64,000 nucleotides of DNA. Source: Haemophilus parainfluenzae. GTDB taxonomy: Bacteria > Pseudomonadota > Gammaproteobacteria > Enterobacterales > Pasteurellaceae. Below are positions 900 to 11,990 of the stretch, in pieces. Both the position numbers and the translations under genes were made by a program. The DNA lies in NCBI GenBank assembly GCA_963516375.1, contig CAUQBI010000012.1, positions 6,562 through 70,561 on the forward strand, read 5' to 3'. The notes under the pieces were generated by a model. The model worked only from the letters and a program-made list of their open reading frames with translations, made no database searches and was not told the origin of the DNA. Positions within the stretch are counted from its first letter, which is position 1. Each line of letters begins with the position of its first letter.

Positions 900-3557
900 T
901 TATTGATTTGCCGGTAAAGCACCCGAATTCCAAGTTGGTGCTTCAGCGGGTTTCTTCACTTGCAACATAAAGCGCTGATTTGCCGTTGCTTGTGGTTGAA
1001 CGATCGTACCCGATGGAGTCGAGAACGAAATGCCCCCTTTCAACAATTGCTGTACGCTACCGGTATTAAATTCAGCCCCTTTCCAGCCAAGGTTAAAATC
1101 ATAACCTGATGAAACCCAGAACTCTGAATTTTTACGTACTAAATGTTGATACTTCGGCGTAATCGCAATATGTACCAACACACGATCACCTAAAGAATTC
1201 AATTCAAACTTACGAACGGTTCCCACTTCAACACCGCGATAAAGCACTGGTGAGCCTTCCGTTAAATTCATCGCATCACTGGTTTCCAAAATAAATGGCA
1301 CGCCATTGCTGTATTTATTTCTAGGCTGTGCGGTTTGCGCTAAATTAAACTGTGTTTTTGATGGACCTTTGCCTAACTCAATATCAATGTAAGGCTGTAA
1401 AAGGCTATCTAAGTTTTCAATTCCACCTGCTGAGATTTGTGGGGAAATCACTTTAAATACCGTACCTTCTTTTGCAATCATCCCCATATAACTTGGGTTA
1501 ATTAATGCTTTTGCGGTGATGCGATTTGTTTTTTGATCAAGGGCAATCTGCTCGACTTCACCCACATTCATACCTAGATAACGCAAACTCATTCCTTTAC
1601 TTAAAGCCGTTGCATCATCTGTGAGTAACGTAATCACTTGTCCTGCTGATTTGGCTCGCAGTTCACTTGGATAAAGGGTTTTATTTTTGCCTGATCCTGT
1701 ATTATCAAAACTAATCGCCCCTTTTAATGAACGAGCAACCGGAGAAGCCTGAATACTAATGCCTTTCGGCGTAATATCAATTTGTGCTGCACTTTCTACC
1801 CAGAATACACTTTTATCTGTAAGAAGATTTTGATAAGCCGGATAAATATACACATCAATATCAAAGTTATTGGCTTTCGGTCTTACGTTAATAATTTTAC
1901 CCACTTCAAACTGACGATAAAGCACCACAGAACCTTTACTAATACTTGGCAAATTAGTGGAGTGTAACACAATACTTGGATTCACTAAGTTACCCGTAAT
2001 GCCCGTTTCTGCACTACTGATATCTTTATAAAGTGGATAGCTTGAATGTGGGGCGCCACTTCCTTTTTTAGGTAATACTCTCACCCCACCTTGTAGCCAT
2101 TTTGATGGTGTTGCTGATTCAAAACGTAATCCGTCGATACCAAAACTTACATCAAAATTAGAGGCAGCCACAAATTGAGTGTTCTCATGAATAAGATTGC
2201 GATATTCCGCCGCAATTGCCGCTTCAAATTTCACACCATCAACATTTAAGTGCTGCTTCACAATTTGACCAATAGCAATATTGTTATAAAACACCGATTG
2301 CCCTTCAGTAATACCATAAGTTTCTGGTGCGGTTAAGGTTAAAATCAAAGTATTCGGTGCTTTGAGCAATAACTCATGTTCTCGAATCACATCAAATTGT
2401 GTTTTGCTTTCTCCGCTACCCGGAATAATTTCAAAATAATCTCCGCGGAAGAATTTTTTCGGATTAGCCACATCACCCAAATCTAACTTACGATTTTTTA
2501 ACACAATACGTGTATTCGTTTTTAAGAGGTTAGCTTGGTTTGGATCGATTAATAATGTGCCTTTTAAAATTTCTTCATTATTTTCATCCGTACTTAAAGA
2601 TGAAAGAAGACCCACTTGCTCATCACCATAATAAACCGAGGTTTGCCCTGCATCTAAACCAGCACTCACCGGAATGGTCACCTCAACTTCAATCCCGCGT
2701 TTAGCCGCTTGCAAATTAGAATAAAGTGTATAGTGGCTATTAGTCACAGCTTGTGGGCTATCTGATGGCGAATCAAATGATACCGCACCTTGCACTACTG
2801 CATTTAAACTATCAACCTCTACATTCACACCTGATGCATTAATGTTGGCGTTGATACCACTAATATTCCAGAAACGTGAATCTTTCTTCACAAAATGCGC
2901 GAAGGCTTTATCAATCACCACATCAATTTCAACTTTATTGTCTTTATTGAATCGGTAATCATAAATTTTCCCGACTGGCATTTTTTTGAAATACACAGAA
3001 GCCCCAATCGAAATCGAACCTAAATCATCAGAAATTAAATGAATTAATAAATCACCCGGATTTACTTGCGCAATAGGGCCTTGTTCTTCTGCAATAAATT
3101 CATCCTCAGAATCACCATCACCTGGTTGAAGTGTAATGTAATTTCCTGACACTAAAGAGTCTAAACCTGAAATCCCCGCAAGAGATACACTCGGTTGTAC
3201 AAGCCAGAATTTGGTATTTTCCTTTAACACATCCGTGGCTTCAGAATAAATGTTAGCCTCAACTTTCACTTTTTGCATGTTGTCGGTAAAGTTAACCTTC
3301 TTCACAACACCAATTTGCAAACCTTGATAGCGTATAGGCGTTTTATCTGCAACGAGTCCTGCACCATTAGAGAATGTTATCGTAATGGTCTTTCCTCGTT
3401 CTTGTACAATTTGGAAAAATAAAATGGCACCAATACATAATGCGATAAAAGGTAACAACCAAAACGGTGAGATGCGTTTATTCTTACGTAATAACGCTTC
3501 TACATTGTTAGATTGCTCATCAATAGATTGAGATTCTGGTTTATTGTTTTCTGTCAT
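900..3557 (-). CDS. letB: Multi-MCE-domain lipid transport protein LetB/YebT (PqiB family)
   Basis: N-terminal TM (SPFWLLP) followed by repeated MCE domains (TPIRYQGLQIG, SPVLYRGVEVG); 885 aa. Confidence 0.92.
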   Translation of the reverse strand: MTENNKPESQSIDEQSNNVEALLRKNKRISPFWLLPFIALCIGAILFFQIVQERGKTITITFSNGAGLVADKTPIRYQGLQIGVVKKVNFTDNMQKVKVEANIYSEATDVLKENTKFWLVQPSVSLAGISGLDSLVSGNYITLQPGDGDSEDEFIAEEQGPIAQVNPGDLLIHLISDDLGSISIGASVYFKKMPVGKIYDYRFNKDNKVEIDVVIDKAFAHFVKKDSRFWNISGINANINASGVNVEVDSLNAVVQGAVSFDSPSDSPQAVTNSHYTLYSNLQAAKRGIEVEVTIPVSAGLDAGQTSVYYGDEQVGLLSSLSTDENNEEILKGTLLIDPNQANLLKTNTRIVLKNRKLDLGDVANPKKFFRGDYFEIIPGSGESKTQFDVIREHELLLKAPNTLILTLTAPETYGITEGQSVFYNNIAIGQIVKQHLNVDGVKFEAAIAAEYRNLIHENTQFVAASNFDVSFGIDGLRFESATPSKWLQGGVRVLPKKGSGAPHSSYPLYKDISSAETGITGNLVNPSIVLHSTNLPSISKGSVVLYRQFEVGKIINVRPKANNFDIDVYIYPAYQNLLTDKSVFWVESAAQIDITPKGISIQASPVARSLKGAISFDNTGSGKNKTLYPSELRAKSAGQVITLLTDDATALSKGMSLRYLGMNVGEVEQIALDQKTNRITAKALINPSYMGMIAKEGTVFKVISPQISAGGIENLDSLLQPYIDIELGKGPSKTQFNLAQTAQPRNKYSNGVPFILETSDAMNLTEGSPVLYRGVEVGTVRKFELNSLGDRVLVHIAITPKYQHLVRKNSEFWVSSGYDFNLGWKGAEFNTGSVQQLLKGGISFSTPSGTIVQPQATANQRFMLQVKKPAEAPTWNSGALPANQ

Positions 3558-9895: not shown

Positions 9896-9959
9896 AAAAC
9901 AGTTTAATTTTAGACCGCACTTTAGTGCGGTTTTTTGTTATCAACGATAAGGAAAAAAG

Positions 9960-10589
9960 ATGAATATTGAAATTATTCCAGTTACAGCCTTTCAGCAAAA
10001 TTGCTCTCTTATTTGGGATGATGAAAAAAATGCGGCAATTATCGATCCTGGTGGCAATGCGGAAAAGCTTATTCTACGCATTGAGGAATTAGAATTAAAC
10101 CTAAAAGCAGTCTTATTAACACATGGCCATCTTGATCATGTAGGTGCTGCAGAAGCGATTCGTGATCATTTTAATATTGAAATCTGGGGCTCACAGGAAG
10201 AAGATCGCTTTCTGTTTGAAAGTCTACCACAACAATCTCAGCAGTTTGGCTTACCTTATATTTCTGCATTTACACCCGATCGCTGGTTTAATCAAGAAGG
10301 CGAAAAAATTCAAATTGGCACATTTACCTTTGAAATTCTTCACCTTCCTGGTCATACACCTGGCCATATTGGTTTTATTGAACACGAAAAAAACATCGCC
10401 TTTACCGGTGATGTCCTTTTCCAAAACTGTATTGGTCGTACGGACTTCCCTCGCGGGGATTTCAACACATTGATCTCATCAATCAAGAATAAATTATTTA
10501 CGTTAAATAATGATATGGTTGTCATTGCGGGACATGGCCCTTACACAACTATTGGACAAGAAAAACGAAGCAATCCGTTTTTGAAGTAA
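9960..10589 (+). CDS. gloC: Metallo-beta-lactamase-fold hydrolase, glyoxalase II-like GloC/YcbL
   Basis: THGHLDH, PGHTPGH and IGRTDFP motifs. Confidence 0.9.
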   Translation: MNIEIIPVTAFQQNCSLIWDDEKNAAIIDPGGNAEKLILRIEELELNLKAVLLTHGHLDHVGAAEAIRDHFNIEIWGSQEEDRFLFESLPQQSQQFGLPYISAFTPDRWFNQEGEKIQIGTFTFEILHLPGHTPGHIGFIEHEKNIAFTGDVLFQNCIGRTDFPRGDFNTLISSIKNKLFTLNNDMVVIAGHGPYTTIGQEKRSNPFLK

Positions 10590-10606
10590 AGAGCTGAATT
10601 TTGGAT

Positions 10607-10701
10607 AAAAAAAAGCTCCTAATTTCTTAGGAGCACCAAAAAGGAATTTATGAATAAAATCTCTAAAGTTTAGCTTTATCAAAGGAATCTCGATAAAACG
10701 C
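10607..10701 (-). ncRNA. Candidate ~95-nt small RNA downstream of pepT
   Basis: Minus-strand TTGCAT-N17-TATAAT promoter, 5' hairpin, and terminator gctcctaa/ttaggagc with a U8 tail; no credible sense ORF. Confidence 0.65.
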
Positions 10702-10706
10702 TAACG

Positions 10707-10768
10707 ATTATATTGACATATTCTGACAAATGCAAGCTTTTTCTTTACACTAATTTACAAATCTTTAC
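10707..10768 (-). promoter_or_regulatory. Sigma70 promoter with triple CpxR-type box (GTAAA-N5-GTAAA-N5-GTAAA)
   Basis: -10 at 10707-10712, -35 at 10730-10735; TTTAC at 10744, 10754 and 10764 (10-bp period). Confidence 0.65.
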
Positions 10769-11990
10769 AGTTTGCTATTTTTATGACCACTTCGACGGCT
10801 TTTTCCATTCCTTCAAGGGTCACTAATTCATGTTTACTATGGAAATTATAGCCACCAGTAAAAATATTTGGACAAGCTAATCCTTTCTCTGCTAAAAATG
10901 CCCCATCCGTTCCGCCCCGTATTGGTTTATGATTTGGAGTAATACCGCAAGCTTTCATTGCTGCGTCCGCGAGTTCAATCGCCTGTGGAACATTTTTGAC
11001 TGTGTCATACATATTTTTATAACTGTCTTCAATGACACATTCCACAGGCTCTTTCAGGCTTTTCTCTCTATTAAATTTTTCTACAAGTTGATAAATAAAC
11101 GCTTTACGTTGCTCAAATTTAGCTTGGTCAAAATCTCGGATGAGATAATATAGCTCAACTTTCTCAATATCCCCTTTAAAATCATCTAAATGGAAAAAAC
11201 CCTCTTTTCCTGATGTTTTTTCGGGGACATCATCTTTTGGAAAACCTTGTTGAAACTCACAAGCTAACGTAAGCGCATTCACTAATTTATTTTTAGCATA
11301 CCCCGGATGAATACCTCGCCCCTTAAAGGTTATTTTTGCCGTTGCTGCATTAAAATTCTCATACTCGAGCTCGCCCACTTCTCCTCCATCAATGGTATAT
11401 GCCCAATCACAAGGGAAATCATCCAATGGGAAATAATGCATTCCTAAACCAATTTCTTCGTCAGGCGTAAATGCAACCCGAATATTGCAATGTGGTATAT
11501 TTTCCCGTTGCAAGACAGAAAGTGCGGTCATAATTTCTGCGATTCCAGCTTTATTATCTGCACCAAGTAAAGTGGTTCCATCTGTCACAATCAAGGTTTT
11601 GCCAATAAGCTGATGTAAAAATGGATAATATACGGGACTAATAAACTCTTCCCCTAAACCTAATGCAATATCTCCTCCCCGATAATTTTCGATCACTTCG
11701 GGTTGAACATTTTTACCACTGCATTGAGGGGAAGTATCTAGGTGGGAAATAAAACCTATGGTTTGTGTTAAATCAGGATGATTGGAAGGTAAATAAGCTG
11801 TAACGACGGCATGCTTAGTCACATTGACATCTTGTAAACCAAGTTCAATTAATTCTTGCTGCAAGTGCAAAGCCAACTTCATTTGCCCTGCTGAACTGGG
11901 TGAATGTTTTGCAGACGATTTAGATTGCGTATCAAACGCAACATAAGTTAAAAATCGCTGTAATAATTCATTGTTATTATGTTCTTCCAT
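10755..11990 (-). CDS. pepT: Peptidase T (M20B tripeptidase)
   Basis: SHLDTS, LLGADNKAG, FTPDEEIG, PIRGGTDG and GGYNFHS. Confidence 0.97.
   Translation of the reverse strand: MEEHNNNELLQRFLTYVAFDTQSKSSAKHSPSSAGQMKLALHLQQELIELGLQDVNVTKHAVVTAYLPSNHPDLTQTIGFISHLDTSPQCSGKNVQPEVIENYRGGDIALGLGEEFISPVYYPFLHQLIGKTLIVTDGTTLLGADNKAGIAEIMTALSVLQRENIPHCNIRVAFTPDEEIGLGMHYFPLDDFPCDWAYTIDGGEVGELEYENFNAATAKITFKGRGIHPGYAKNKLVNALTLACEFQQGFPKDDVPEKTSGKEGFFHLDDFKGDIEKVELYYLIRDFDQAKFEQRKAFIYQLVEKFNREKSLKEPVECVIEDSYKNMYDTVKNVPQAIELADAAMKACGITPNHKPIRGGTDGAFLAEKGLACPNIFTGGYNFHSKHELVTLEGMEKAVEVVIKIANCKDL

Follow-up and report, generated by a model that had tools for sequence, protein, structure and literature searches.

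A conserved small RNA gene behind pepT of Haemophilus parainfluenzae with a seed complementary to the start regions of ESPR-type autotransporter adhesin genes

Does the short stretch behind the peptidase T gene (pepT) of Haemophilus parainfluenzae encode a regulatory RNA of its own, and if so, which genes would it address? The stretch lies in a window of 64,000 nucleotides, i.e., the whole piece of DNA that was analysed (assembly GCA_963516375.1, contig CAUQBI010000012.1, positions 6,562 to 70,561). A sequence-only reading of the window had proposed here an envelope-stress small RNA (sRNA) driven by CpxR and directed against ribosome-binding sites (anti-RBS). The features of the locus are collected in Table 1.

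Table 1. Features of the pepT-side locus (positions of the window)
Feature	Position	Strand	Remark
pepT (peptidase T)	10755..11990	minus	upstream neighbour; box array runs over its final codons and stop
Metallo-beta-lactamase-fold gene, ycbL/gloC-like	9960..10589	plus	convergent; other genes instead in relatives
Three TGTAAA hexamers, 10-bp period	10744..10769	minus	candidate transcription-factor array, CpxR the best candidate
-35 hexamer TTGCAT	10730..10735	minus	TTGnnn in 75/75 loci with a -10
Spacer repeat TGTCAG-N4-TGTCAA	10713..10728	minus	in phase with the upstream array
-10 hexamer TATAAT	10707..10712	minus	TATAAT in 70/76, variant in 5/76, none in 1/76 loci
Predicted ~94-nt sRNA	10607..10700	minus	predicted start 10700 +/-1
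5' hairpin, 11 bp	10673..10699	minus	covariation in relatives
21-nt seed	10650..10670	minus	antisense to AUG plus codons 2-7 in ESPR autotransporter genes
CU-rich anti-Shine-Dalgarno stretch after the seed	10638..10649	minus	predicted duplexes with adhesin Shine-Dalgarno sequences
Intrinsic terminator, 8-bp stem and U8	10607..10634	minus	stem at 10634-10615; likely Hfq handle

The three exact GTAAA pentamers at a 10-bp period that had been read across the end of pepT are present in the minus-strand letters (10768-10764, 10758-10754 and 10748-10744), each preceded by a T. The first overlaps the Cys-Lys codons of pepT, the second holds its stop (TTG TAA) and the third lies beyond the gene. TTGCAT follows 8 bp downstream of the triple, and the 17-bp spacer that separates it from TATAAT contains the GTCAG-N5-GTCAA repeat described earlier (10727-10713). 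In Rodentibacter loci a perfect TGTAAA pair takes the place of the TGTCAG/TGTCAA repeat. The promoter had been called near-consensus; the hexamers and their spacing stand, but the -35 hexamer agrees with TTGACA at just three of six positions, and the promoter was therefore missed by the promoter scan. The terminator scan gave no further terminator between pepT and that of the unit, and the pepT mRNA is likely to run on to the terminator of the small RNA. Elsewhere in the window (9912-9933) a terminator-like hairpin is formed by two inverted uptake-sequence-type repeats between ycbK-like and ycbL-like genes.

A unit of ~95 nt with a 5' hairpin, an AU-rich single strand and an 8-bp terminator with a U8 tail, as first described, was recovered by the terminator scan and by folding. 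The fold of 10605-10701 consists of the 5' hairpin and the terminator (z -3.0; 0/200 shuffles equally stable). In a model-fitted alignment 10 of the 11 hairpin pairs are changed on both sides and 95.8% of the cells are paired (0/500 shuffles); on an unfitted MAFFT alignment both-side changes are seen in 2/11 pairs. The letters of the terminator stem vary freely between genera, with a stem and a U tract persisting. The last 11 nt of the seed have an unpaired probability of 0.52-0.96 in 37 of 38 loci and of 0.31 in the remaining one (L084); all 38 have a -10-like hexamer and a U tract, features on which the script itself had selected them. The anti-Shine-Dalgarno stretch is variable in distant members; it is predicted to form duplexes with the Shine-Dalgarno (SD) sequences of the adhesin gene on host contig C8 (see below) and of related adhesin genes. 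With its own promoter, an intrinsic U-tailed terminator and a largely unpaired conserved seed between variable stems, the unit has at sequence level the anatomy of a trans-acting Hfq-type sRNA, and an hfq gene is present in the host genome.

Matches to the unit were obtained by blastn in 107 of 236 Pasteurellaceae genomes, strongly in g1 (55/56), g38 (20/20) and g60. Several weak matches are due to chance, so that the total overstates membership. On inspection, L080, L081 and L087 were chance matches, L082, L083 and L086 chance matches to CRISPR leaders, and L090 was an ESPR gene start. An exact 26-nt pattern identified 76 species-level loci (H. parainfluenzae, H. influenzae, H. haemolyticus, Rodentibacter, Pasteurella bettyae and others); a -10 hexamer occurs at the equivalent place in 75 of them, and these 75 without exception have a U tract and a -35 of the TTG type. 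Covariance model R1 added matches in 17/80 and 8/58 genomes, model R2 in 6/39 and 5/39. Among these, L108 and L109 proved to be ESPR starts, L121 is unrelated, and L384 lacks the seed and was left out of the count; alignment A2 included one opposite-strand row and one partial row. After inspection, members are found in about 21 of 50 genus codes. Outside the Pasteurellaceae but within the same order, R1 matched 0/39 and R2 0/4 genomes. The Rfam search named as a check in the sequence-only reading was run and gave no family at threshold on the window unit (best csRNA, 26.4 bits vs 57); over 10 homolog loci there were no matches on the unit and two elsewhere in the loci. The proposed comparison across Pasteurellaceae came out in part as expected, since the hairpin covaries and the unit is conserved, but the GTAAA boxes are confined to the Haemophilus/Rodentibacter branch. 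The sRNA is duplicated in g18 (L392-L401), G074 (L119/L127), G113 (L126/L128), G189 (L386/L391) and G104 (L381/L385); the additional copies, which mostly stand in tandem ~300 bp apart, have another distal seed and form a small paralog family. An Rfam AaHKsRNA22 match (L115:1678-1776) lies convergent to the g33 member, 84 bp behind it.

One member, and very likely a second, already has a catalogue entry. The H. influenzae copy, with the same sequence as the g38 copies, is HiB_sRNA_00855 / HiA_sRNA_01623 in Supplementary Data 1 of PMC10895043, called from small RNA-seq of cultured bacteria; the rows are anonymous among 449 (Rfam n, BLAST n), and HiB_sRNA_00855 is marked as detected in infant nasal samples. 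The 5' ends called there lie inside the hairpin, reverse-strand twins are included, and the rows and passages on these entries name no bacterial target or regulator. The second is Rna04 of Actinobacillus pleuropneumoniae, an Hfq co-IP candidate of 109 nt on the plus strand at rluA2-ampD (PMC9577009 Table 3), which was Northern-negative and is presented there without target, regulator or family. Model matches L382/L383 lie in the Rna04 context and align with both published Rna04 primers, and L394 contains the exact reverse-primer site in a 109-nt unit. The g18 members match the window unit with model E values of 0.012-0.037 and share the base of the hairpin and the seed. Rna04 has the same CGTTTTAT..ATA[AG]AGC hairpin base and seed as the pepT-side family, but differs by a second hairpin and by having no strict box pair; judged by these sequences it is very likely a distant member. 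Two orphan catalogue entries would thereby be tied together. None of the 124 sRNA rows for H. influenzae 86-028NP in Table S4 of PMC4144887 falls at the locus. Among contigs of RNA runs, X2 (10429-10697) ends 3 nt from the predicted start, a weak indication from one strandless study; in the same study X5 covers 10597-10768, X1 spans the region and X8 does not cover it. Contig X5 (185 nt, RNA-labelled run) consists of just the promoter and the sRNA, repeats 13 nt of its own end in inverted orientation, and is probably an artefact. In the openly accessible papers covered, neither the family nor its seed nor an sRNA directed at ESPR/autotransporter starts was found for Pasteurellaceae.

Low or undetected expression in two studies, and the resemblance of the seed to an inverted adhesin start (which may be its origin), would suit a non-functional scrap of such a start left between pepT and the terminator, or a cis element of the pepT mRNA. 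Either reading is very improbable, and an origin as remnant or pepT 3' UTR is largely refuted by the distribution of the unit. The seed is identical among the listed copies of 55/56 g1 and 20/20 g38 genomes, despite drift in spacer and terminator. The unit has its own promoter and a covarying hairpin and occurs in at least six gene contexts (pepT, argD-scrA, tesB-cmoB, xseA, sucD-purH, rluA-ampD). It is present where pepT is absent (L067, L070), and it is lacking downstream of pepT in all 18 other genomes inspected, six of the 24 loci (truncated or second paralogs) having been set aside. A coding role on the plus strand is more improbable still: the conserved stretch would be an SD sequence followed by a 7-codon peptide, MNKISKV, and SD, ATG and stop are indeed there, as are reverse-strand calls in the PMC10895043 catalogue. 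The listed g1/g38 copies have no synonymous change, however, g18 has an internal stop, G187 has lost a codon and no stop is conserved elsewhere; promoter and U tract are oriented to the minus strand only. A small RNA with its own promoter, as had been proposed, agrees with the -10 hexamer in nearly all pattern loci, the two loci without pepT and the small RNA-seq call in H. influenzae, and the unit is with high confidence a real, conserved sRNA gene.

What the RNA might address is suggested by its seed, the reverse complement of AUG AAU AAA AU(C/U) U(C/U)U AAA GUU. The peptide M-N-K-I-F-K-V (AUG AAU AAA AUU UUU AAA GUU) is the start of ESPR-type autotransporter adhesin genes. A degenerate seed pattern, designed with ESPR genes in mind, matched in 151 of 236 genomes; of the 30 loci returned, 26 are ESPR-type starts (one in a short broken frame) and four are the sRNA itself. 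An 'identical core' in 43/44 loci was set aside as circular, the loci having been chosen by that core. In order to escape the circularity of the designed pattern, ESPR genes were taken from Pfam PF13018, giving 94 loci (the top 30, 60 picked from 150 listed, and four own), of which three lack a start and 86 are unique. In-register pairing with the window seed of at least 17/21 is reached by 73 of the 86 ESPR starts versus 12 of 1632 host genes, and at every position from 2 to 7 the codon used most often is one complementary to the seed. With kin counted as independent and one genome as background, the mean pairing over ESPR starts is 18.03, a value reached by 0/20000 seed shuffles, 20/20000 distal-only shuffles and 0/1629 antisense copies of other real gene starts. 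When 1632 host starts are ranked by the 21 nt in register, the ESPR adhesin gene C8:95801 is first (19/21, with 10 bp more on its SD), and two further ESPR trimeric adhesins of the host (C14:9764 and C1:74868), identified by Pfam, tie at ranks 2-6.

Other members of the family gave a blind check. The seed of a g18 member found by the covariance model reads MNKIF*VIW on the other strand, pairs at 26-27 of 30 positions with 5/5 g18 ESPR starts, and places the three ESPR adhesins of the host at ranks 1-3 of 1632 (25, 24 and 24; next 21; mean 14). Two changes are matched by lineage: in G227 a similar sRNA-like element (L084), which may be an ortholog, pairs over 31/32 nt with the start of its own genome's MNKVFKV adhesin, and the G074 seed tracks the CGU Arg codon of its own ESPR genes. 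The L084 element itself (about 2930-3090, rraA-rsmG) has a promoter in which 4-5 copies of an 8-bp tandem repeat separate the -35 from the -10, a number that might be variable.

The complementarity has exceptions. With unfolding costs, C8 falls to rank 12, C14 to 66 and C1 to 90 among 120 candidates, and several ordinary envelope genes score better; for two of the host adhesins the net energy is weak. A core of only 9-12 nt puts the host ESPR genes at ranks 90-731 of 1632. These host genes have AAC or CAT codons, which do not match the seed where it is most invariant. In an unanchored duplex ranking of 4579 candidate starts, long bulged duplexes dominate and C8 is at rank 14. Over 47 ESPR starts from 23 divergent genomes, cognate seeds pair on average at 17.0 positions in register, the window seed at 18.4; the cognate seeds fit worse because several lineages have an indel or, as in g33, g37 and g35, have no more than about 11-14 nt of the seed left. 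ESPR genes also occur in genera in which no sRNA member was found. Two single cases are worth recording. The host gene at C2:128477 (L099), encoding a 2759-aa TPS-domain CdiA-like protein, has an ESPR start with seed pairing of only 12/21. In G187 (L079/L103) the seed has a deletion of just the three bases of the anti-Asn codon, the two ESPR starts examined keep MNKIFKV, and pairing with them would require a 3-nt bulge.

Such rankings might also be expected of a broader repressor, in which the 11-nt AUUUUAUUCAU together with the anti-SD stretch would act on many envelope mRNAs beginning AUG AAU/AAA AAA, with ESPR genes as one subset. Only those 11 nt are kept in all members, and the best host candidates by net energy, C7:35089 among them, are mostly genes with signal-peptide-like starts. 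This breadth is nevertheless unlikely: the match at codons 5-7, which extends to Ile-Trp in g18 and G227, goes far beyond shuffles and is invariant among the listed g1 and g38 copies. A broad repressor is compatible with an ESPR repressor and comes nearest to the envelope-stress idea of the sequence-only reading. The generic part of that idea is not supported, as it is the AUG and codons 2-7 of ESPR genes to which the invariant part of the seed is antisense, and the boxes are mostly at adhesin genes.

Sequence and comparison give the unit, its conservation, the covariation of its hairpin and the in-register complementarity with its specificity; on this basis the sRNA probably represses translation of ESPR-type adhesin mRNAs by pairing with their start regions. 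In the host strain a ~94-nt sRNA would be transcribed from its own sigma-70-type promoter, and its seed would pair, likely with Hfq, with the AUG and the six codons after it in ESPR (MNKIFKV) adhesin mRNAs. Pairing over the adhesin start would block translation. Thanks to G-U pairs, exchanges between Lys and Arg codons or between AUU and AUC would not disturb pairing with the U/G-rich seed, so that a single RNA would reach a fast-evolving gene family via its one conserved stretch. In Haemophilus and Rodentibacter a factor at TGTAAA-N4-TGTAAA, likely CpxR, would control both the sRNA and adhesin promoters in a feed-forward loop; boxes fill the promoter spacer in Rodentibacter, and we therefore lean to repression of the sRNA. 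The complete picture, a Pasteurellaceae-wide sRNA silencer of Type V secretion that reads the MNKIFKVIW codons, has a CpxR loop in Haemophilus/Rodentibacter and possibly began as an inverted adhesin start, is put at even chances.

The main adhesins other than pili in Haemophilus, Actinobacillus and their relatives are trimeric autotransporters. To our knowledge almost nothing has been reported on their post-transcriptional control, and we know of just a handful of Pasteurellaceae sRNAs with targets. If the silencer is real, whole trimeric autotransporter repertoires would be controlled however fast the rest of the genes changes. An sRNA seed antisense to the codons of a protein motif would be an unusual route to the regulation of a gene family, and the extended signal peptide, whose conservation has, as far as we know, hitherto been read at the protein level only, would gain a second constraint at the level of RNA. 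The outcome is a named family with a precise predicted target site.

Hfq-type sRNAs that cover start codons are already known; the new point is the seed antisense to ESPR codons. MicA, RybB and OmrA/B are trans-acting sRNAs of this type that repress outer membrane proteins and pair over the starts of surface-protein mRNAs. The pepT-side unit has a similar anatomy and predicted pairing place but differs in sequence, locus and predicted targets, and, unlike theirs, its seed corresponds to the codons of a signal-peptide motif conserved among Type V secreted proteins. CpxQ of enterobacteria is cut from the cpxP 3' UTR by processing; it also lies at a 3' end, has a tie to a Cpx-type regulator and acts on envelope mRNAs. 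The unit differs from it by its own promoter, unrelated neighbours, absence of an Rfam match and anti-ESPR seed. The analogy with CpxQ drawn in the sequence-only reading is not supported, given the promoter and the unrelated neighbour genes in other genera. Rna01 of A. pleuropneumoniae (PMC9577009) belongs with MicA, RybB and OmrA/B in its Hfq-type anatomy, action in trans and pairing over starts of surface-protein mRNAs, but is located at sbcB-eriC with a sigma-E promoter and has a different sequence and different targets. HrrF (PMC4144887) is likewise a Pasteurellaceae-specific sRNA of ~97 nt with its own promoter and terminator, but it is Fur-controlled, lies at the pmbA-hpt locus, is in Rfam and has no sequence match to the unit. 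Hinc4 with 92 nt (PMC4659474 Table 1) is close in size to the ~94-nt unit. Identity of the unit with Rna01, HrrF, AaHKsRNA021-023 or Arrc was rejected, for Arrc because the supplement contains no seed string.

The regulator was approached through the boxes. GTAAA-N5-GTAAA occurs twice in the window versus 0.31 expected (6/100 shuffles reach two), and the GTAAA triple once in the 1.86-Mb genome versus 0.036 expected. Genome-wide the plain GTAAA pair is not enriched at spacing 10 (27, versus 31-42 at other spacings). For TGTAAA-N4-TGTAAA there are 15 occurrences at spacing 10 and at most two at any other spacing from 6 to 30; 14 of the 15 are intergenic. Among 75 related loci 56 have the triple, and 71 have a pair upstream or within the spacer. 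A box lies within 300 bp upstream of 11 of 1632 host genes, of which four are trimeric adhesins (two ESPR, two not); these are four of five trimeric adhesin genes, where five assumes that the C13 anchor forms the end of the C8 gene, as inferred from the contig ends. In the family, 21 of 86 ESPR starts have a box within 400 bp. Boxes are found in the Haemophilus/Rodentibacter branch only and are absent from the majority of distant sRNA members.

Three OmpR-family regulators were found in the host genome (QseB, ArcA and CpxR). The CpxR profile scores 328.7 bits, slightly below the cut-off of 341, and the gene adjoins that of CpxA, which is intact and above its cut-off. The unit thus has a GTAAA-N5-GTAAA box at its promoter and cpxRA in its genome. 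In letters and 10-bp period the TGTAAA boxes match the CpxR consensus of PMC9816388, and titles of papers on H. ducreyi link CpxR to repression of virulence determinants. On these sequences, control of the sRNA by CpxR via the boxes is favoured somewhat. A little short of even chances is given to the repeats being a phased A/T UP-like element or a binding site for some other factor than CpxR, a rival that concerns the regulator question alone and leaves the sRNA and its targets standing. In its favour, three rRNA-type promoters at contig ends of the host (G000 C1:34, C7:75 and C23:34; L353, L354) have a reversed TGTAAA-N4-TGTAAA whose end lies 9 bp upstream of the -35, and boxes lie near nrdA and luxS. 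Among the 22 genes having a box with at most one mismatch, the starts of degP, dsbA and cpxR were not recognised. Boxes also persist, together with cpxR, in two of three box-bearing g38 genomes where cpxA is split in two pieces (G131:C1:116308-117682) or was not found with the query (G132), and they are lacking in the majority of distant members. On the other side stand the strict period of 10 bp, which is that of the published CpxR consensus, and the finding of cpxR in 5/5 genomes tested. Perfect TGTAAA pairs sit inside the Rodentibacter spacer, where they cannot serve as an UP element. For ArcA and QseB-type repeats the period is 11 bp. With clade-limited boxes, rRNA-type sites and no evident classical Cpx targets, the link to CpxR is therefore regarded as likely only, and as a clade-specific addition to the sRNA.

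The box list offers a candidate set of CpxR sites for Pasteurellaceae hosts. Further strict boxes of the host (G000) lie before a luxS-like gene (C2:141107), near an nrdA-like gene (C3:45300), in the gap separating a BON/LysM gene from its divergent neighbour (C4:5350), before a lipoprotein with BamE/OmpA domain (C16:23653), and before two YadA-anchor adhesins without ESPR (C8:79097 and C14:29550), together a candidate regulon.
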